From: a virus
Length of the DNA stretch: 64,000 nucleotides
UHGV virus genome: UHGV-1351772
Reading direction: 5' to 3' (one strand)
The notes below the pieces were generated by a model. The model saw nothing but the letters and a program-made list of their open reading frames with translations. It ran no database searches and was not told the origin of the DNA. Positions 10,110 through 43,337 of this stretch are shown piece by piece (positions within the stretch are counted from its first letter, which is position 1; each line of letters starts with the position of its first letter). The translations under genes were made by a program, and so were the position numbers.

Positions 10110-10136
10110 AGGATAATATCTATCTCACTTATTTTA
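10110..10136. promoter_or_regulatory. conserved palindromic AT-rich promoter/operator motif (copy a)
   Basis: taggataatatctatctcacttatttt sits between divergent starts at 10082 (-) and 10146 (+); core AGATA-A-TATCT palindrome shared with copies at 23740, 23820, 31621 and 39521. Confidence 0.55.
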
Positions 10137-20445: not shown

Positions 20446-21759
20446 ATCTGTCAGTACCGCTGAGATGAACAATGTCTGAATAGAAAGTTGAACCAATGTT
20501 GGGTTACGCAGAACTTCCAACATTAAGCCGAATCCGCCGGGGGATTCTTTAATCAACTCATTAATAATTTCATGTACCAACGGTACATACTGCATTGCCG
20601 CAAATGCAATGATGCGCTCACATTGTCGAGGTGTATAATCACGTCGACCTAACTTGTTCTCAATGTGAACACTCGCCAACGGAACCAACCAACGCCAAGG
20701 CGCAATAACTTTCAACGCATCATGAGGTTCAGAGATAGGAGAGATAGTCACACGTCCGCCCCACGGTACGTGTGTTGACCCGAGTTTTGCCCGATAGAAC
20801 CCAGGTTTACCTTCCATCACTTCCTGACGATGGTCAATATAGAAATACGCAAGCTGTCGATTCGCTTTGATCGCACGACGAATAATAAATCGTGGTTCGA
20901 TACGGCGTGCATTCGTGTACAACAACGCCACATTTTTTACTGCGTCGATAGCGCTGGTATAAACCGGATCGATAAAAATACCTTGTCGGCGCTCCTCCGT
21001 AACGATCAGTTTTGATGAAATAATCGGAAGGTGTCTTGGAAAGAATGAGAACGATTGTTCCTGAAAGAACTCACGCCATTCTAAGCGCACGCGCTCACTC
21101 TCATAACGGTTATTTTTCGTTGGTGGATAAATCTCCTTCCAAGCTTCCGGAGACGTAAGGATATTAAAGACGGTTCGATGGTGGTCGATAAAGTTTCGAA
21201 TTCCCCGTTCGAAGCCATGTTCGCCGAGTATTCTTTTCACCACGCGAGCACGTGTTCCCTCGTCCTTTTCTGGATGGTAGTACGGATCGATTAGCCACAG
21301 CAGTAAATCAGACCCGCGTTCTACCGTCACTTTGTTACGATTAAATTTTTTCAGCTTAGAGCCAAAGAAGGCATTAAAGAGAGACCAAAAACGTGGATTG
21401 ATAAAGTTACCCATCTCATCGGGAGCGCGTAACCAGACATCAGACGTAATCCGATGTTCAGAAACAACATGTCCGCAATGTGGGCAACGAAGCCCAAGAT
21501 TATAACGATGGGTAATAGGTGATTCGCAGGTCAGACTGCAAATAGGAGCCGAGTTGAGTGTTTCATCAACGATTCGGTTTTGGAGTATTTGGTTAATCAT
21601 CTCCGACGCTTCGATGGTATCCATCGTTGCAGCAACGTCATTGATAATAATCGGTGGTTTGTAGCCTTTTTCCTCCGCTTCTTGTATACAGTCACGTAAC
21701 ATCTTGTCGTGACTAATTAGTCGCCCCGAAATCCCGTAATATTCTAGTTTATGTTCCAC
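20260..21759 (-). CDS. multisubunit RNA polymerase beta-prime subunit, N-terminal part (set A), exon 1; last ~55 codons are probably intron read-through
   Basis: Cys cluster CSLTCES...CPHCGH (zinc ribbon), GKPGFYRAKLGSTHVPWGGRVTISPI matching [27 protein letters not shown], and VLRNPTLVQLSIQTLF matching VLLNRAPTLHRLGIQAF; homology stops ~25 codons before the expected NADFDGD. Confidence 0.6.
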   Translation of the reverse strand: MEHKLEYYGISGRLISHDKMLRDCIQEAEEKGYKPPIIINDVAATMDTIEASEMINQILQNRIVDETLNSAPICSLTCESPITHRYNLGLRCPHCGHVVSEHRITSDVWLRAPDEMGNFINPRFWSLFNAFFGSKLKKFNRNKVTVERGSDLLLWLIDPYYHPEKDEGTRARVVKRILGEHGFERGIRNFIDHHRTVFNILTSPEAWKEIYPPTKNNRYESERVRLEWREFFQEQSFSFFPRHLPIISSKLIVTEERRQGIFIDPVYTSAIDAVKNVALLYTNARRIEPRFIIRRAIKANRQLAYFYIDHRQEVMEGKPGFYRAKLGSTHVPWGGRVTISPISEPHDALKVIAPWRWLVPLASVHIENKLGRRDYTPRQCERIIAFAAMQYVPLVHEIINELIKESPGGFGLMLEVLRNPTLVQLSIQTLFISAVLTDVTQCSLRISDRVIKAPNAKHWPTRRETSSAYPSNCWKPLKLTIPTGWRKSETIRKITYANQ

Positions 21760-21770
21760 GCCGAATCCTC

Positions 21771-21814
21771 AACAAAAAAAGAGAGGGAAGGGACAGGGGG
21801 TTTTCCCCTGTCCC
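21771..21814 (-). terminator. strong intrinsic terminator
   Basis: gggacagggg-(g)tttt-cccctgtccc hairpin followed on the minus strand by CTCTCTTTTTTTGTT, directly after the stop of the 615-aa gene. Confidence 0.7.
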
Positions 21815-21843
21815 TCAACTACTGCTTACTACTTACCAACTTA

Positions 21844-23691
21844 TTAGAAAGTCGGACGCCAGTCAGTTGCAGCGAAGGACATACCGAAATCGCTACCAAA
21901 TGCGTTAGGACCGCTACCAGACAGCGCGAAGTTCTCATTACCCGTGTTAACAAACACAGAGTGAGTGAGGCTGTTCGCTGCGGTAACACCATTCACCTGG
22001 AAGTTGCAGTTTTCAGTAATGTATTCCACCAGTGCTTTACCAAACAGCGGATTGATCGCCAGGTCAGACGCTTCACCCGTTACCTGCGGCTGTTTGCTAC
22101 CGAACATGGACGCAGCCATTTTCAGCAGGTACAGACGCTGGTCACGCGCATTCAGATAGCGGTGAGAGTAGGACTGTGCACTGATGTAGTCGATCGCATC
22201 GCGTTGGTTATCACCCACTTTAGTCAGAGCGGAAACCAAGTCCATATCCTGGAAGCTGCGTTTCTGGCTGTTGCTGAAATACTGACCAGAGATGGTCGGG
22301 CAACCGGCAATAACAACGTGTTTGCACTCGAAGTTGGTGACATTGCCCAGCAGTGCTTTGAAGCGAGTGCTGAACTTAGTCGCGCCGTTGCTGGCCATGT
22401 TATCCAGGATATTGAACAGGGTGTACAGTGCGTTGGTGTTACCCATCCCGATTTCGCTCAGGAGAGTAGACAGGCCACCGATACCGTTACCTGCACGATG
22501 GTTCACCACCAGGGCCGCAGTCGGGTTAGCGAAGGTGTCCAGGCATTTCTCGATAACTTCACGGTTACCGTCGATTTTGCTCAGGTCAGGTTTTTCGCTG
22601 CCCCATTCTACATACTCCAGAACGCGGGAGAAGCGGCGATCGGTTTTGTTCAGCGACTGCATGAAACGTTCACGCCAGCCACCAATAGTGGCGATTTGTG
22701 CGAACGCGGCCAGTTCAATCAGCTGACGCTCGATAGGTGCCATTGCCCCAGAGGACTGAGAATCCATCAGGGAAACAACCACTTCGGCTTCCAGCTGACG
22801 CAGGTCCTGAGTACCGTTAGTCAGGGTTTGAGGTTTACCTTTATGGCGGAGGTTGATGTAACCAACACCTGCAACGCTCGGATAATTCTGGAGGCGTTCA
22901 GAAGAGAACAGCGTCGGGTTATTATCGTTGTTGCCAGTGCGAGTGTGGTCAACCACAACCATCAGGTCAGCACGTTGTGCAGAACCGTTAACGTCAGTTA
23001 CAGAACCTTCTTCAACTACGCTGACTTGCGCGGTGAAGCGATCAGAACGGGTCATTTTCAGGTAGCCCAGGTAGCCGGAATGACGACCGAAGATACCCAA
23101 TGCAATCTGGCCCATGAGCTGGTTAGCCCATTCTTCGTTCATGGTTTTACCCAGTTCCGGTACGCAGTTCATTACCATGAACTGTACGCTTGGCAGATTG
23201 TGCTGAGTTGCAATCTGGTTAGTGATGTTGTTCATCACACCTTCTTGACTGAACAGCTGCGCCAGGGTGTAGTAGTTTTCTTTACCGTTGATTTCGTAGA
23301 AACGGATGGACTGGCCATGTTCAAAGAACAGGATACCATAGAGCCATTCGTTATGGTTATCGCCGGACGGACCAGCCACGTATGCAGCAGAACCCATTTC
23401 AGAGTTGATGCCGTCAATAACACCCCAACGGAAGTTACGCAGGTATGTGTTCTTCTCCGCCATCTTCTCAATCAGGCTAGTGAACTGAGAAGCAGTGGAC
23501 ACGAAAGACATGTATCCGAAAGCTTTATCGAAAGTAGAGATGTTTTTAGACATCCCACCAAAAGCGTTGGCCGCATTGGTATTATCCACAGTAGCAGCTC
23601 CCGCGCCACCGAAAGACGGAATTGGATCTGCAGCGGAACCAGCAGCACCAGTCACAACGTCGTTTTGATTGTCAATAAACTCTTTAGCCAT
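21844..23691 (-). CDS. abundant 615-aa protein: candidate chimallin (phage-nucleus shell protein); alternative is major capsid protein
   Basis: Strong optimal-codon bias (ggt, cgt, ctg, aac, ttc), two tandem promoter motifs upstream and a strong terminator downstream; ~67 kDa with Gly/Ala/Ser-rich N- and C-terminal segments; directly upstream of the beta-prime N gene, as chimallin is in phiKZ (recalled synteny). Confidence 0.45.
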   Translation of the reverse strand: MAKEFIDNQNDVVTGAAGSAADPIPSFGGAGAATVDNTNAANAFGGMSKNISTFDKAFGYMSFVSTASQFTSLIEKMAEKNTYLRNFRWGVIDGINSEMGSAAYVAGPSGDNHNEWLYGILFFEHGQSIRFYEINGKENYYTLAQLFSQEGVMNNITNQIATQHNLPSVQFMVMNCVPELGKTMNEEWANQLMGQIALGIFGRHSGYLGYLKMTRSDRFTAQVSVVEEGSVTDVNGSAQRADLMVVVDHTRTGNNDNNPTLFSSERLQNYPSVAGVGYINLRHKGKPQTLTNGTQDLRQLEAEVVVSLMDSQSSGAMAPIERQLIELAAFAQIATIGGWRERFMQSLNKTDRRFSRVLEYVEWGSEKPDLSKIDGNREVIEKCLDTFANPTAALVVNHRAGNGIGGLSTLLSEIGMGNTNALYTLFNILDNMASNGATKFSTRFKALLGNVTNFECKHVVIAGCPTISGQYFSNSQKRSFQDMDLVSALTKVGDNQRDAIDYISAQSYSHRYLNARDQRLYLLKMAASMFGSKQPQVTGEASDLAINPLFGKALVEYITENCNFQVNGVTAANSLTHSVFVNTGNENFALSGSGPNAFGSDFGMSFAATDWRPTF

Positions 23692-23739
23692 TTTACTTAA
23701 TCCTTATAAGGTTTAATACAATTGTAGTGTTGGTTCACG

Positions 23740-35680: not shown

Positions 35681-35756
35681 TGGCGGGGGTGGGAAGTTTC
35701 GAACTCCCAACCTTCGGTTTTGGAGACCGCTGCACCACCAATTGTGCTACACCCCC
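35681..35756 (-). tRNA. tRNA-Trp (anticodon CCA), 76 nt with encoded CCA
   Basis: Hand-folded cloverleaf from the reverse complement: acceptor GGGGGTG/CACCCCC, D-stem GCAC/GTGC, anticodon loop CUCCAAA (U33, CCA, A37), T-arm GGGAG-TTCGAAA-CTTCC; anticodon and T arms nearly identical to E. coli tRNA-Trp. Confidence 0.8.
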
Positions 35757-36264: not shown

Positions 36265-36626
36265 GACAGATTTCCTAACTCATTGCCGACCTCCTGGTCA
36301 GCAGCTACCATCGAATTCGTGCAACGCGTAACATGTTCACGAATCGCTCGAGCCAAACCTTCACGAACGGCTACCAGGAGACACTCTCGATAGCTCGGAT
36401 AATGCGCAATAGGGCTAGGGATGTGTTCCACGCAATAACCATCGTGAACTTCCACCACTACCGTGATGTAAATCTCGACGGGTTGGTAAATCCGCACGCT
36501 CTTGATCAAATCAAGTAACGCTGGCTCCGTGCATCCCCAGTCCTCCGGGGCTTTTAACAGCACTGCCAACTCATCGAGCCTGTACTGAACATCCAATTCC
36601 ACGTTAGTGGTGTTTTTGGAATCCAT
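36261..36626 (-). CDS. hypothetical protein (start refined to ATG at 36626)
   Basis: Track start at 36710 is TTG; the ATG at 36626 has SD aggag 8 nt upstream; stop overlaps the hslV-like start (ATGA). Confidence 0.5.
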   Translation of the reverse strand: MDSKNTTNVELDVQYRLDELAVLLKAPEDWGCTEPALLDLIKSVRIYQPVEIYITVVVEVHDGYCVEHIPSPIAHYPSYRECLLVAVREGLARAIREHVTRCTNSMVAADQEVGNELGNLS

Positions 36627-37518
36627 ATTAAAATCTCCTGTCGTGGTCTGTGTCACACCAACAGGAAATCCTGTAAAAAAATAATTCAGCTGCGTACCGG
36701 CGTTTCTCAACGGGAGTACGCACCCCTCTCGTCTTTGCGAGCCGTCAAGCTAGAGGACATCACACTGCCAGCGCTACCTGGAGCAGGGTCATTCGACGCA
36801 ACGTCGTAATTCGCATTTTGGCCGCACCTCTGGGAGCGTATCCCACCGTCGGCTGCCCGCAGGTAAGTTCTACGGACCTTTCGCCAACGTCGCTCCCAGA
36901 GGCTGCCACGGTTCACTCGGATTTTCTCATGTGGTCCACGCGTCACTGATAGCGCGGGTTCCCCAACACTCGTAAGTCGGGGAACGGTACCGAGCACCTG
37001 AACTCTGGGGATTCCAAAAATCCCTCGGGGTAAGTACGATTCGCAAATCGATTTTCAAACCCCATAGTAAAACAAACTCCAGTGTTAGGCTGAACGTTTT
37101 GTTTTTCCCAGTACACGGCGAAATAAATTCCATGCACTCGAAAAAACAACCCCCAAACCAACACCCGGTCAGGGGGCTTCGAGCTCTGCTGAATCTTCGC
37201 AGACAGAAATCGTGTTTGAGCTGTGAGCAGTAAACTCCTGAACTCCGAAAAATCTTCGTGGTTGGATTTGTAAATCATCCCACGCAAATCCTCCGAACAT
37301 ACCATAGGGTTTTAACGTTCGAAAAAGGGGAATGGGTTTTACCCCCCTCGGTCAGGTGTTCAGGGTAGACCCCCTACCCGATCCCCCAGGTGGGGATTTT
37401 ACCCTGGTGAATTACCCCGGGTTCGATTTTCGGATTTTCTGGAAAATACCGCTCACCGATCCCTACCCCCTCAGGGGGGTCAGACCGAGATCAGATCTCA
37501 TAATAAGGATCGCGCGCG

Positions 37519-37680
37519 TTTTATATATATTTATATATAATATATATTATATATAATAATTATTATATTAATAAATATATTAATATATTTATTTAAATAA
37601 ATAATTAAATAATACCTAAAGGTATTATTATTTTGATCCTAAAGGAATAATATATTTATAAATAAATATATTATACTATA
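37519..37680. other. ~160-bp almost pure A+T core: candidate DNA-unwinding element of a replication origin
   Basis: Only a handful of G/C across 37519..37680, with internal inverted repeat aataatacc-taaa-ggtattatt, inside a 1.65-kb gene-free island. Confidence 0.5.
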
Positions 37681-37700
37681 CGCGCGTGCGTACGCACGCG
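37681..37700. repeat. alternating purine-pyrimidine CG palindrome (cruciform/Z-DNA-prone)
   Basis: cgcgcgtgcgtacgcacgcg: perfect 18-bp palindrome cgcgtgcgtacgcacgcg inside a fully alternating 20-mer, abutting the AT core; a shorter gatcgcgcgcg sits on the other flank (37508..37518). Confidence 0.6.
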
Positions 37701-38361
37701 TATAAGGAAGAGATCTTGAGATCAGATTTTTGAGAGAGTTAAAAATTTAAGATCGATCCGAGAGACTTAGTGTCTCTCGAAGAGTATTAAAAAATTTAAA
37801 AGATCAAAAAACCAAAGCTAGAGAACTACTCAACCTGAATCTTCAGTGTGTGAAGATTCAGTAAGTTGATCAATCCAGCTGATCCGCTAGTACGCGAAGC
37901 GTGAATGTTTTTTTGATCGTCGCGGCGGCCGGTCCGCCGACCCGAGGGTGGGGTGGAACTGGTCGAGGGGAATGCCCCTCAGGCGCTCTCAATCGCGCTG
38001 TAACGAGTTAAACGGGGTTCTGGTACCCAAGTGTACCCCTTGAGGAGATTTTTGCGTCAAAATGCGTTCTAGAGCGTTTTACGATGGGGTGGGTTTTCGA
38101 CCCACTCAGGGATAGGGGTTGGCGTGACAGCTCGAACGACAAAATCGTGGTTTCATGGCGTTGAGTGAAAATAAATTCAAAACCCACAACCAAAAACACC
38201 CTCAAATTCTTCGTAGGAAGCTCTCTGACGAGATAAACGTGGGTAAGGGGTACGAACGTACCGCCTGGAAAGAAAAATGCGTTAGAATCGCTCTCAGCGC
38301 GTTTTTGATTTTTGGGCAAAAAAATAAAACGGGGGAGACTTCGGTCTCCCCAGAATATTTT

Positions 38362-39486
38362 TTACAGAGTCGTCAGTTCTTTTGACGGATAGTACAGTTT
38401 CACATCGACCAAACTGTAACCGGTGGCGTAGAACACCTGATTTCCGACCGAAGCAATAAACCCTTCAGGGTCGATAACGTCAACCGAGAAATCGGAATCG
38501 AATAGCCAGGTTTCTTGTTCCCCTTCCCGTTCGAAAACGGCAGCGTAACGCCCGTATTCTGGGCCTCGGCGGAAACGAAACAGCGTTAATCCTGTCTCAC
38601 GTTCTAAGCCATAAATCACCCCATTTTCTTCGTAGATTTCAGCGCGATTACAGCGTGTAACCGTCAACAACGCAGGCCGTTGTGTCGGGATTGTTTTAAA
38701 CGGTGAAGGCCCATCGTATGTCGTTGAAACCCAATCACCGAGACTGTCTAACGCCAGTGCTCGATACGCGATAGGTGACTTGTAGTTACACAACCTGTTG
38801 CCCTCGGTGTACATCGTGTATTCGATGCGTAACGTAGTACCGATGATGTCGTTCAAACTCAGTTTGTAGTGCGCTAACTGGGCTTGTATACGACAGGACA
38901 GAATTGTACACAGGAAAGTGTGACCCTCTGTAGAACGGCACACAACTCCGTAATCGGTCACTGCCAGTAACGTGGCATCTGTTTTACGGACGGGTTCCAG
39001 GCGAAACACCTCATTTTCAGTTTCTACGAGGAACTGCGAAACCGCTTGGTTTCTGGATTTAGCTTTAATCGTATCGAACACATCACCCGCTTTTACGATT
39101 AACGGTTCTACCACGTTTACCTGAAACGGCAGCGGTTTAGTTGGGTATTGTCCCAACGTTGTAATCGTTACTGAGTTGAGTTCTGGGTCCGATGCGTCAG
39201 GATCACCAGACAACCAATACGTTAGCCATTTCGACAACGTCTGGGGAATGACGCGCGTGGTGTAAAACAGAATTTCGCCATGTAAACCTGCCTCTGCCAA
39301 TTCGCGTGCAAGAAACGAGTTGACCGCGTCGTAGGTACCGTTGCGCAAGATGTCCATACCCCCGACACGAACCAAATCACAAATTACGCCGTGTGGAAGA
39401 ACCCACATTTTGACGTTTTGATTTCGGTCGATGGTACCTTCGCGCAGCATTCTGTGCCAAACGGGTTTACGTAAGTAATTTCTCAT
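38362..39486 (-). CDS. hypothetical protein (374 aa)
   Basis: Minus-strand ORF, first gene after promoter motif d. Confidence 0.55.
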   Translation of the reverse strand: MRNYLRKPVWHRMLREGTIDRNQNVKMWVLPHGVICDLVRVGGMDILRNGTYDAVNSFLARELAEAGLHGEILFYTTRVIPQTLSKWLTYWLSGDPDASDPELNSVTITTLGQYPTKPLPFQVNVVEPLIVKAGDVFDTIKAKSRNQAVSQFLVETENEVFRLEPVRKTDATLLAVTDYGVVCRSTEGHTFLCTILSCRIQAQLAHYKLSLNDIIGTTLRIEYTMYTEGNRLCNYKSPIAYRALALDSLGDWVSTTYDGPSPFKTIPTQRPALLTVTRCNRAEIYEENGVIYGLERETGLTLFRFRRGPEYGRYAAVFEREGEQETWLFDSDFSVDVIDPEGFIASVGNQVFYATGYSLVDVKLYYPSKELTTL

Positions 39487-40992: not shown

Positions 40993-41232
40993 TCAATGGG
41001 GCCCTGACATTACCACGAGGTGTATAGAGTAGACCATATTTAGCGCATAGGTAGCTGACGAACCTGCTACCATCAGACCAAATACTGCAAATGCCTGTAC
41101 ATACCGTGTTTTTCGTAGTGGGAAACCTTGCGAACGTCCGTATTGTTTTATCGCTTGGTAACTCTCGCGGATCATTTTATACGTCGCTATCCACGAAAAG
41201 AACACAAGTAAATAGTAAATTGGAGCCATCAC
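40993..41232 (-). CDS. small membrane protein (two predicted TM helices)
   Basis: 79 aa with two hydrophobic stretches (APIYYLLVFFSWIATY; VQAFAVFGLMVAGSSATYALNMV); start overlaps the terminase stop (ATGA). Confidence 0.45.
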   Translation of the reverse strand: MMAPIYYLLVFFSWIATYKMIRESYQAIKQYGRSQGFPLRKTRYVQAFAVFGLMVAGSSATYALNMVYSIHLVVMSGPH

Positions 41233-43337
41233 TTCATCCTCTGGCGTTGGATAAGCTCTCTTAAGCTTTCCATTGACGCCACGTTTTGTGTATCAGTGTT
41301 AAGTTGAGCAATGAGGGACTGGAGACGGTTACGAGCAGCCATTGCTTGAACCGGGTCTAATAACCCGTTTGTGGTTCGCACAAGACGCTCAATTTCCCCC
41401 ATCAGTTCCTGCTGTCGCGCCTCCTCCTCGAGTTGTAATTCCTCATCCACCCCTTCACGATTTTCGACTAAATTACGATTGCGCATCATCAATCGACTGT
41501 TGTTGATTTCATAATGCCCCAGGTTATTCCCAAGCAGCAATAACCACATCGCAAGTAACCAAGAAATCACGAGGTCGTCATGACCTGAAGCTTTGTGGTC
41601 AATACGACCATTTTTCTCCACGAGGTTAAGTATCTGGTCGATGAGTTCTCCGCAACGGAGTTTATCCGCGGATAAGCGCAACGCTGTGGTGAATACCTCA
41701 CCGTACAGTTTACGACGTTTTTCCTGGTCGGTTGAGAAACCGATATATTTACGGAATTTATTCCAGAACTTCTCAGCGTTACCAATAGGTCCACGGTGAT
41801 ACTCTTTGTAGAGATCGTCCGTACGTGAGTAGTCCTGAGTGATTCTCACAAATAAACGGCGATGTAAGTCCGTGACGCGAGACTGTAACTGCAGGATAAT
41901 TGCATCAGCCACAGACGAGCCAGTAGACCGTCGTTCCAGGATTAGTACCGTGTTAGGATATCGCACCATAAAATCCGCTAAATGAATCGCGAAAGAGATA
42001 ACGTTAGATTCGTTAACGGTTAATTTACCTGCATACTCTGCGGTCACAGAGTTAACAATAGACATGGCGATCGCGTCTCGACCCACCGCCTCAGAGGTAT
42101 CCAACCCGATGACGTGTCGGTCTTTGAGCTTCGTCATCATCTCCTCTTCGGTGTAGTACCAGTCGGTAACGTAGTTTTGTGGTGAAATATCTTTAAACAC
42201 AGCACGCATACGGGAAGCATTCATACGATCTGCATCTTCCGCTGAGAACGGCTTGTTCAGACCACCGGTAGTCCATTCACCCCCGAAGTCACGACGGATC
42301 TGGTCAGGGGTACCTTTGGCGTTCGCAATCATTGCCGCTAACTGCTCATCGCTGGTACCGAGCTGACGGTGGTTGTACTTCACGTAGAACATGATACGTG
42401 GGACTTCTGCCGTGGAGTTAGAACGGATGATATCAATGAGCTGTTTACGGGTTGGAATGTCGATATAGCGCTCATCCCACATAATCCCCGACGTCATCAG
42501 CTCGTACATGTACTTGCCTTCTTCCGTCGCTAAGTCACCAGGGGTTGTTGCGAATACGTTACCGTAAGGAACACCTTCCGCTTCGTTAATACGGCGAGCC
42601 GCTGTACCGGATGCCAGGGCTGCCGGTAGAATGTGGTGTACGTTTTTGGTAAAGGGGCCTTCGTCCGAGAACAGACGACCAGCGGTGAGTCCACGACCGA
42701 TACCGTTAGCAGATTCTGGGTCGTTTTGGCCGATACCCGTAATCAGTTTGTTACCCTGGGCTAAACACGCAAAAGTTTCGCGGTTATCTGGATCATCTGG
42801 ATGTGCTGGCCACAAGTAAGACGGTAGACCGTTACGTAGTTGCTTAAGTTTGTTAATGGTTTCTTCACGCAGTGCCGGTCCTTTTGTGATAAGAATCGTA
42901 CGAGAGTTTTCCAGAAACCGAATTAACCACAATAGTAATCCGCTCATCCCGACGGTTTTACCATGCTGACGGAGGAACTCGACGGCGGCGTCGATGTTGT
43001 TGAAGAAAATCCAATACATCGAAAAGTTACCACGGTCGATACGGAACGGCGACCCGTATTTCATACCGTCCGCAGGTACCCTGACGCACTCTCGAAACCA
43101 GTACCAAGGGTTTTCAGCACACTCGATGGCGATATACGCTTTCTGCTCGTCCGTTAGGTTTTCGTCAAAAGGATCGACCCCTTGCAGTAAAGGGTTATGT
43201 AAGGCGAGATGAATATAGTAGTGCTTTACACCCAGCTTTTTTAGGATATTTGCAAACTTGATAAACGATTTGTTTGTGGTTTTATCGTCAACAATAGCGC
43301 CTGGATAATAACGCCAGTCCGATTCACGTAGTATCAT
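41229..43337 (-). CDS. terL: terminase large subunit (T4 gp17-like ATPase/nuclease)
   Basis: Walker A LRQHGKTVGMS closely resembles T4 gp17 SRQLGKT; 702 aa, a typical size for a two-domain large terminase. Confidence 0.55.
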   Translation of the reverse strand: MILRESDWRYYPGAIVDDKTTNKSFIKFANILKKLGVKHYYIHLALHNPLLQGVDPFDENLTDEQKAYIAIECAENPWYWFRECVRVPADGMKYGSPFRIDRGNFSMYWIFFNNIDAAVEFLRQHGKTVGMSGLLLWLIRFLENSRTILITKGPALREETINKLKQLRNGLPSYLWPAHPDDPDNRETFACLAQGNKLITGIGQNDPESANGIGRGLTAGRLFSDEGPFTKNVHHILPAALASGTAARRINEAEGVPYGNVFATTPGDLATEEGKYMYELMTSGIMWDERYIDIPTRKQLIDIIRSNSTAEVPRIMFYVKYNHRQLGTSDEQLAAMIANAKGTPDQIRRDFGGEWTTGGLNKPFSAEDADRMNASRMRAVFKDISPQNYVTDWYYTEEEMMTKLKDRHVIGLDTSEAVGRDAIAMSIVNSVTAEYAGKLTVNESNVISFAIHLADFMVRYPNTVLILERRSTGSSVADAIILQLQSRVTDLHRRLFVRITQDYSRTDDLYKEYHRGPIGNAEKFWNKFRKYIGFSTDQEKRRKLYGEVFTTALRLSADKLRCGELIDQILNLVEKNGRIDHKASGHDDLVISWLLAMWLLLLGNNLGHYEINNSRLMMRNRNLVENREGVDEELQLEEEARQQELMGEIERLVRTTNGLLDPVQAMAARNRLQSLIAQLNTDTQNVASMESLRELIQRQRMK

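Follow-up and report, generated by a model that had tools for sequence, protein, structure and literature searches.

A conserved, single-copy non-coding locus in relatives of jumbo phage SPN3US: a gene for a large structured RNA beside an A+T/GATC DNA element

What does a 1.6-kb island without a convincing protein-coding gene do in the genome of a jumbo phage? We addressed this question for the viral genome UHGV-1351772, of which a 64,000-nucleotide stretch (the window) was analyzed; this jumbo phage has Salmonella phage SPN3US (Seoulvirus) and Erwinia phage phiEaH2 (Erskinevirus) among its relatives, with genes at ~75% nucleotide identity. An earlier reading made from the letters of this DNA (the sequence-only reading) had called the island gene-free and proposed it as a replication origin with the architecture of oriC or P1 oriR. 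We found that the island forms a single composite non-coding locus, conserved and present in one copy, that joins an RNA gene to a DNA element. The firmest of the new findings is that half of the supposedly gene-free island is the gene for a large, strongly conserved structured RNA; the other part, the A+T/GATC element, is a conserved, one-per-genome cis-acting site, whose possible role in replication is weighed below against other readings.

A structured RNA gene in the left half of the island

Homologous loci were collected using as probes GATCTCNTAATAAGGATCNCGCG, the core of the motif at the left edge of the A+T-rich part, and the reverse complement of a block at the 3' end of the RNA. Together with GenBank records, these searches yielded more than 40 loci, from IMG/VR, metagenomes and one metagenome-assembled genome (MAG), that fall into ~7 clades with 40–60% identity in the island. 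All loci share a gene order in which an HslV-like gene is followed by the island, zero to two small genes and a phrog_8136 gene; next come a head-protein gene of phrog_2921, encoded on the opposite strand, and the large terminase gene. The island has been kept while the flanking proteins are merely 30–62% identical between clades, indicating that it is older and better conserved than its protein neighbors; the RNA, too, is more conserved than the surrounding protein genes. One metagenomic contig, CYGL01000001.1 (228,572 nt), is 99.8% identical to the window over the left (RNA) part of the island.

The left neighbor most likely starts at the ATG at 36626 rather than at the TTG at 36710 given in the list of open reading frames (ORFs), so that the island spans ~36645–38361. 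The three ORFs within it (96–120 aa) were compared with relatives ~89% identical, and substitutions were spread evenly over the codon positions (5/3/5, 12/11/12 and 21/18/25, in contrast to 42/13/177 in a neighboring gene), with many insertions or deletions of 1–2 nt. Given this lack of codon periodicity, the frameshifting indels and the absence of any Pfam match for the three ORFs, we rejected a protein-coding reading. The earlier statement that the island holds no convincing ORF was thus upheld, but its description as gene-free was not, because a structured RNA is encoded on the minus strand of its left half.

That the left part of the island is a minus-strand gene for a structured RNA of ~700 nt is well supported. 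In an alignment of 18 sequences from ~7 clades (alignment A2), invariant blocks lie between helices whose two sides change together. RNAalifold predicted 54 pairs from this alignment, 21 of them with compensatory changes, and a fuller structure of 99 pairs was 92.5% paired. Both sides had changed in 44 of these 99 pairs, compared to 29.1±2.9 in column shuffles (0/500 as high) and 10–19 in controls with slid partners, and the covariation score of the 99-pair structure was 0.338, versus 0.07–0.09 for the slid controls. The strand of the RNA is clearly the minus strand, since the ratio of G-U to A-C cells in the helices was 191/24 when they were read as minus strand and 88/94 when read as plus strand, and since the minus-strand fold was the better one in nine of ten representatives, its minimum free energy (MFE) being lower by a mean of 35 kcal/mol. 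Codon periodicity was absent from the RNA region in comparisons with relatives.

The 3' end of the RNA is formed by a covarying 32-nt terminal hairpin (36691–36722) followed by GCTGAATTATTTTTTTAC on the minus strand, and this terminator hairpin immediately precedes the block of HslV-like and tRNA genes. A hairpin followed by ATTTTTTAC was also seen between ordinary genes of these phages, where it is the usual form of terminator. The distance from the 3' block to the motif at the A+T core is 430 nt in the Huxley-like clade, ~630 nt in L011, 756–842 nt in most clades and 1368 nt in Wellington, so that the RNA region in relatives measures roughly 430–1370 nt. Between the RNA core and the A+T-core motif lies a variable region, with GATC sites at 37380 and 37458, that could be a leader or promoter region of the RNA, or a spacer; most other clades carry a terminator-like hairpin followed by ATTTTTTAC, on the minus strand, between the A+T core and the RNA core. 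In nhmmer searches, both the RNA half and the right half of the island were single-copy in the window and in the complete 243-kb Seoulvirus genome.

The RNA is previously undescribed. No match to the island was obtained at E<1 in Rfam 15 (including GOLLD, ROOL, RNase P, tmRNA and group I/II introns), matches at E<10 were chance-level fragments only, and the sole match at E<1 was a tRNA outside the island; none of the known families in Rfam 15 fits. The searchable literature yielded no description of the RNA, with the proviso that the individual entries of one large catalogue of phage RNA candidates could not be checked. The RNA is similar to GOLLD and ROOL in its length of several hundred nt, its many covarying helices, its highly conserved unpaired blocks (e.g. 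CTTGGCGGCTCGGAAAGACGAGAGGGG, GAACTTACC and ACCGTGGCAGC) and its location in a phage near tRNA genes. It differs from them in lacking similarity to any Rfam 15 model at E<1, in being confined to one jumbo-phage group, and in being physically coupled to the A+T/GATC element. A tRNA-Trp (CCA) gene is found at 35681–35756 (minus strand), 0.9 kb from the RNA 3' end, and relatives have one to eight tRNA genes on the same side (in SPAsTU, seven within ~3.5 kb: Asn, Gln, Ile, Asp, Glu, Tyr and Trp), which places the structured RNA at the head of the phage tRNA region.

The A+T core, its boundaries and the GATC cluster

The sequence-only reading had described an A+T core bracketed by alternating-CG sequences, and this description proved accurate (Table 1). 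The first ~97 nt of the core are pure A+T, and its best 100-bp window is 98% A+T, versus 74% in the next best of the 64 kb; in the 243-kb Seoulvirus genome, the core reaches 96%, versus 75% in the next window. The core is bracketed by GATCGCGCGCG (37508–37518) and a perfect 18-nt alternating palindrome, CGCGTGCGTACGCACGCG (37683–37700), and its flanks are invariant, with GATCTCNTAATAAGGATCNCGCG on the left and GCGTATAAGGAA on the right. The left motif core (37494–37516) is unchanged in most clades, two clades differing by at most three substitutions, and its invariant columns were seen in a five-clade alignment. It had one match in the window even at three mismatches (0 expected), and exact matches were found in eight IMG/VR contigs, all of jumbo-phage size.

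A common plan was observed in every clade. One or two GATC sites, GATCTC-N-TAATAAGGATC and an alternating G+C tract lead into 80–190 bp of A+T containing a hairpin with covarying arms, which is followed by GATCCTnnAGGA, a second alternating G+C tract and GCGTATAA(G/T)GAA, and then by a module whose length is constant and which contains perfect hairpins and a mini-hairpin of the GCGAAGC type, with TGATCG(T/G)CGCGGCGG next. The arms of the central hairpin covary between clades, from AATACC/GGTATT to AATATC/GATATT in Erskinevirus and ATATCCC/GGGATAT in SPAsTU, L011 and L016. The form GCGTATAA[G/T]GAA is present at the right boundary in all clades but two, and the GTATAAGGAA found there is a direct repeat of TAATAAGGA in the left motif. 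A TAAGGA direct repeat flanking the core, in two to three copies, is the sole conserved repeat.

In the window, ATAAGGA occurs at 37502–37508 and at 37702–37708, as a direct repeat on either side of clamp, core and clamp, and the clamps themselves are inverted G+C-rich repeats. Formally, a small element inserted with duplication of its target would have this layout; if it is such an element, the insertion is ancient, because it is fixed in all clades. The length of the core is polymorphic, at ~123, 167 and 191 bp among relatives (L010, L017 and L033) whose flanking non-coding sequence is 89–98% identical, which suggests frequent slippage or recombination within the core.

The GATC cluster was also confirmed, and it held when GATC was counted across the whole window, which contains 208 sites (3.25/kb; observed/expected 0.84). 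Fourteen of them fall within the 536 bp from 37380 to 37915, ~8-fold over the window rate, while the next densest 550-bp window has six (Poisson P ~1e-5 after correction for all start sites). All 11 clade representatives had such a cluster, with 7–14 sites per 580 bp versus 0.8–3/kb in the flanks, and several of the positions were conserved among them. GATC was the only mixed-composition 4-mer palindrome enriched in the element (4.4-fold, compared to 1.1 for TCGA, 0.3 for CTAG and 0.2 for AGCT), and this pattern argues for a GATC-specific function at the DNA level rather than for general self-complementarity.

A D12-class (Dam-family) methyltransferase gene (PF02086, E = 4e-54) was found in SPN3US, phiEaH2, an Asesino-like phage, Huxley and four contigs of the window's clade, so that the enzyme is present in every clade with genome-scale contigs searched. 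No other place in the 243-kb Seoulvirus genome is as A+T-rich as the core or as dense in GATC as the cluster. GATC occurs there at 1.98/kb (OQ383623.1; L005–L009, 243 kb), versus 3.25/kb in the window, and this scarcity, despite the phage Dam-family enzyme, makes the local cluster more striking.

Table 1. Coordinates of features in the island
Feature	Position	Strand	Description or basis
Conserved core of the large structured non-coding RNA	36676–37345 (~670 nt)	-	Alignment, covariation, strand asymmetry
Variable G+C-rich hairpin region between RNA core and A+T-core motif	37346–37488	-	Alignment A2 columns 24–276 poorly conserved except for clade-specific hairpins
Left boundary motif GATCAGATCTCATAATAAGGATCGCGCGCG	37489–37518		Three GATC sites and a (CG)n clamp
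A+T core, candidate DNA-unwinding element	37519–37680		~94% A+T; ~10 G/C in 162 nt by eye
Central hairpin/palindrome AATAATACC-TAAA-GGTATTATT in A+T core	37609–37629		DNA fold -5.4 kcal/mol, z = -2.5
GATCCTAAAGGAAT, conserved GATC with TCCTnnAGGA inverted repeat at right core edge	37635–37648		GATCCTGGAGGATAC or GATCCTGTAGGAAA in other clades
Right clamp and boundary: alternating purine-pyrimidine G+C tract, 18-nt palindrome, then GTATAAGGAA	37680–37709		Direct reading
Right module 1, ~215 bp	37710–37930		Eight GATC sites, covarying hairpins, direct repeats, mini-hairpin, TGATCGTCGCGGCGG
Right module 2, conserved non-coding blocks	37931–38331		GGTACCCAAGTGTACC at 38022–38037; TTCTAGAGCGTTTT at 38068–38081
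Intrinsic terminator of upstream minus-strand gene (38362–39486)	38332–38351	-	Hairpin, T-runs on both strands

Right module 1 keeps a constant length across clades (199–240 bp). The short inverted repeats that had been reported here are real, and two of them form perfect, covarying DNA hairpins at 37759–37779 (z = -4.2) and 37835–37861 (z = -7.5). Of the direct repeats that had been called iteron-like, the two copies of 22–25 bp exist (37733–37754 and 37781–37805), but there are only two, and they are not conserved in other clades. The mini-hairpin of the GCGAAGC type lies at 37892–37902 and the conserved TGATCGTCGCGGCGG at 37914–37928. In right module 2, the ORF at 38008–38319 is non-coding. 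The right modules showed neither an MFE strand bias nor a clear G-U/A-C asymmetry, and a second structured RNA in the right module is a doubtful candidate: there are covarying hairpins, yet the consensus structure is weak and strand asymmetry is lacking, so that the module may act either as RNA or as DNA.

Terminator-like sites were more frequent than expected in the islands of three relatives (10 versus 1.9, 7 versus 2.3 and 6 versus 2.1), and they were mostly on the minus strand (8/10 in L001 and all of those in L002 and L020, 7/7 and 6/6). This pattern suggests that minus-strand transcription is stopped repeatedly on both sides of the core, as would be the case if the core were insulated or if short transcripts ran across it.

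The element as a candidate replication origin

The explanation that fits most of these observations is that the A+T/GATC element is the replication origin of the phage, a reading that we consider possible but hold tentatively. In such an origin, the A+T core would act as the unwinding region and the G+C clamps would confine its melting, while methylation of the GATC sites by the phage Dam-family enzyme, full or hemimethylated, would mark the replication state. Transcription units that abut or cross the core (the RNA gene on one side and, on the other, short minus-strand transcripts across it) would assist its opening or the priming of synthesis, as they do at the origins of T4 and T7. Indirect support for an origin comes from the occurrence of the element once per genome, from its build, which is that of an unwinding element, and from a GATC cluster matched by a methyltransferase of the phage.

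Further support came from nucleotide skew, which the sequence-only reading had suggested as a check. Plain cumulative GC skew was dominated by gene orientation and was set aside as uninformative. When gene orientation was regressed out and significance was assessed by permutation, the best single change point in the window fell at 37 kb, at the island, with lower skew to the left and higher skew to the right, which is the polarity of an origin (step ±0.037; matched by 1/500 permutations). In the Seoulvirus genome, the best two-arc model switched from minus to plus at 178–186 kb, close to the island (186.6 kb), and in the reverse direction at about 70 kb (3/200 permutations were as good), with the island bin ranking third of 109.

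Several observations weigh against an origin. The skew signal of phiEaH2 was not significant (71/100), with best arcs starting at 160–164 kb and the island at 165 kb. Moreover, the skew step is small (r = 0.014–0.037) and could instead reflect differences in gene class or expression, because the island also separates gene modules. No DnaA box (TTATNCACA) was found in the window's island at up to one mismatch, and in relatives these boxes were scattered and not conserved. Iterons, in the sense of three or more repeats of an initiator site, were likewise lacking, as the only direct repeats were two-copy ones that are not conserved between clades, and Pfam and PHROG searches of the flanking proteins revealed no initiator, helicase-loader or primase gene adjoining the element. 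The presumed specificity of the phage methyltransferase for GATC derives from its family only. These phages are thought to replicate in a protein shell that excludes host proteins, so that control of the host SeqA or DnaA type should not be assumed. Finally, Cronobacter phage CR5, of the sister genus Derbicusvirus and the nearest outgroup, has neither A+T core, GATC cluster nor RNA, and a search of its record detected nothing similar to the island; the syntenic site is occupied by 547 nt of intergenic DNA of an ordinary kind, including a normal phage promoter, so the module is not universally required in the phage family.

The proposed likeness to oriC and P1 oriR held in part. Like those origins, the element combines an A+T-rich unwinding region with a dense GATC cluster in a single copy per genome, and a skew switch of origin polarity was seen in two genomes (the window and Seoulvirus) but not in phiEaH2. 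It differs from them in its lack of DnaA boxes, iterons and an adjacent initiator gene, in that the methyltransferase is phage-encoded, and in that replication presumably takes place in a compartment without host SeqA or DnaA; on initiator sites, it fails membership of the oriC/P1 oriR type. ATP-DnaA boxes (AGATCT), like the DnaA boxes, were dismissed as candidates because they are not conserved across relatives. By eye, GATCTC(T)TAATAAGGATC resembles the right 13-mer of oriC with its adjacent GATC, GATCTCTTATTAGGATC; homology of the invariant motif to this 13-mer was rejected, as it was not significant against dinucleotide shuffles (3–50 of 200).

The element also resembles T4 oriF and oriG and the primary origin of T7, in which an A+T-rich unwinding element likewise directly adjoins transcription units or follows them. 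The terminator-like sites suggest that minus-strand transcription crosses the core in short, terminated stretches, and the phage has T4-like replication and packaging genes. Unlike the T4 origins, the element has no identified promoter, the recognizable phage promoter class being absent, and its core is two to four times longer than the T4 unwinding elements; the T4 and T7 origins, for their part, have neither G+C clamps nor a GATC cluster. In the literature, we found nothing on an origin, a packaging (pac) site or an RNA at this locus, nor a mapped replication origin for any nucleus-forming phage like phiKZ or SPN3US. For a 235-kb phiKZ-like phage contig from mouse gut, which is not known to be the phage of the window, skewed coverage "suggesting bidirectional replication" has been described, with no coordinates.

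The RNA and the A+T core always occur side by side in one orientation, and neither has been gained or lost without the other; for this last reason the RNA may be functionally tied to the element. An extension of the origin reading, which we consider unlikely, is that a new family of large structured RNA (roughly 430–1370 nt) belongs integrally to a Dam-marked, A+T-rich origin of nucleus-forming jumbo phages and is inherited with it. The RNA would then be more than a neighbor and would work with the origin, e.g. as a structured pre-primer, as an opening or licensing ribonucleoprotein, or as a regulator of copy number or timing.

The constant pairing of RNA and core would also be expected if the core, clamps and GATC cluster served to control the RNA gene from upstream, and perhaps a divergent transcript as well, acting as a very strong or methylation-sensitive promoter region with no role in replication. 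Stable-RNA promoters combine an UP element with a G+C discriminator, and an A+T-rich stretch followed by a G+C-rich one resembles this layout; GATC clusters are known to regulate some promoters (Mu mom, IS10, dnaA P2). Sigma-70-like hexamers do occur within the core, but they hardly exceeded the shuffle expectation in the window and did so modestly in relatives, and the phages rely on RNA polymerases of their own. The promoter class that we could recognize, AAAA..(T)T.AGATAGATATTATC-TA-GTGA, was always found on the coding strand, ~25–60 nt upstream of gene starts, and resembles the A+T-rich TATATTAC early-promoter motif reported for phiKZ-like phages. Nine copies of AGATAGATATTATC..GTGA in the window (at 10125, 13913, 15324, 23755, 23835, 31651, 34029, 39537 and 54346, all minus) scored 25–44, whereas the best score in any island was 5; this class was thus found in no island, other classes not being recognizable from sequence, and the A+T core was rejected as a cluster of such phage promoters. 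The Seoulvirus genome has 17 further copies, often followed by AATCGACTATT. Because this class is absent and minus-strand terminator-like hairpins lie on both sides of the core, it is unlikely that the core is simply the promoter of the RNA. In addition, near-pure A+T of 100–190 bp and variable length far exceeds any known promoter element, a terminator-like hairpin with ATTTTTTAC stands between core and RNA core on the RNA strand in most clades, and a control region would leave the skew change point unexplained. We regard this explanation as rather unlikely.

Packaging and a single long transcript are two further possibilities. As in the P1 pac site, where Dam methylation licenses cutting, two GATC clusters lie around a central region, so that methylation-dependent control is plausible; the element is unique in the genome, the large terminase gene is 3.5 kb away in conserved synteny, and several independent GenBank assemblies begin or end in or beside the core. 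These record starts are, however, set by family convention, and 95% A+T is an expected place for an assembly to break. The genomes are reported to be circularly permuted, and the terminase is T4-like, for which packaging is assumed to be sequence-independent and headful. Unlike P1 pac, the element lies outside the terminase gene and has no TGATC(A/G) hexamer repeats, its GATC context (NGATCN) being variable with no shared hexamer; no small-terminase gene was recognized nearby, and CR5 has a similar terminase without the element. A pac site of the P1 type is improbable in our view. The genome-end junction that the sequence-only reading had offered as an alternative is not supported: many records do start or end here, yet the choice of bp 1 follows convention, and circular permutation is reported for the genomes. 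Least probable, we think, is that the whole 1.6-kb island is one minus-strand long non-coding RNA or RNA operon, in which the A+T core and the palindromes (GAUC, CGCGCG) would be RNA elements such as multimerization contacts. The predominance of hairpin and U-run elements on the minus strand in relatives, the covarying hairpins of the right module and the abundance of self-complementary motifs, contacts of which are seen in other large ornate RNAs, are consistent with such a transcript; it is opposed by the right modules, which lack a folding-energy strand bias and clear G-U/A-C asymmetry, by the enrichment of GATC alone among the mixed self-complementary tetramers, which points to DNA, and by the freely varying length of the core.

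Neighboring genes, public records and the meaning of the locus

The minus strand carries nearly every gene around the island, including the large terminase (41229–43337). The flanking proteins had no Pfam match, and their PHROG matches were to "unknown function", HslV-family and terminase groups; the label "putative DNA ligase" that one record gives to a neighboring gene was rejected, since neither Pfam nor PHROG supported it. A weak match to the Rfam family Mu-gpT-DE RNA was seen at 36626–36666 (minus strand; 20 bits, versus a gathering score of 49), over the ribosome-binding region of the left gene. Elsewhere in the window, ORFs of 649 aa (21751–23700, plus strand) and 615 aa (21844–23691, minus strand) overlap almost completely in a region that is locally G+C-rich (52%) with positive skew, and at what is apparently the corresponding place in a Seoulvirus record, the minus-strand ORF alone is annotated.

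The host of the window's phage is uncertain. Its close relatives have hosts in the Enterobacterales, whereas a 13.7-kb contig of the window's clade (L042; JAEWFE010000254.1) is part of a MAG labelled Bacillota. A phiKZ-like phage contig from mouse gut has been assigned a Clostridiales host by contact mapping (PMC5315449).

GenBank records that start or end inside the island or ~1 kb from it include those of SPN3US, SPFM2, Proteus phage 7, EC001, Lh1B, JN03, Asesino, Kwan, Wellington and CR5. Some of these ends fall within the A+T core, so that the element and the RNA gene are split or truncated there, and in a few records the RNA is overlaid by "hypothetical protein" annotations.

These results correct the annotation of a region that in public records is left unannotated or given spurious "hypothetical protein" calls, with many records cut inside it. 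The ~700-nt RNA belongs with the few large ornate RNAs whose function is unknown, and the A+T/GATC element provides a precise place for tests of origin activity, with SPN3US as a genetic model. Should the RNA prove to work with an origin, this locus would be the first defined origin for the phage family, and its RNA would be the first large ornate RNA tied to a DNA element.

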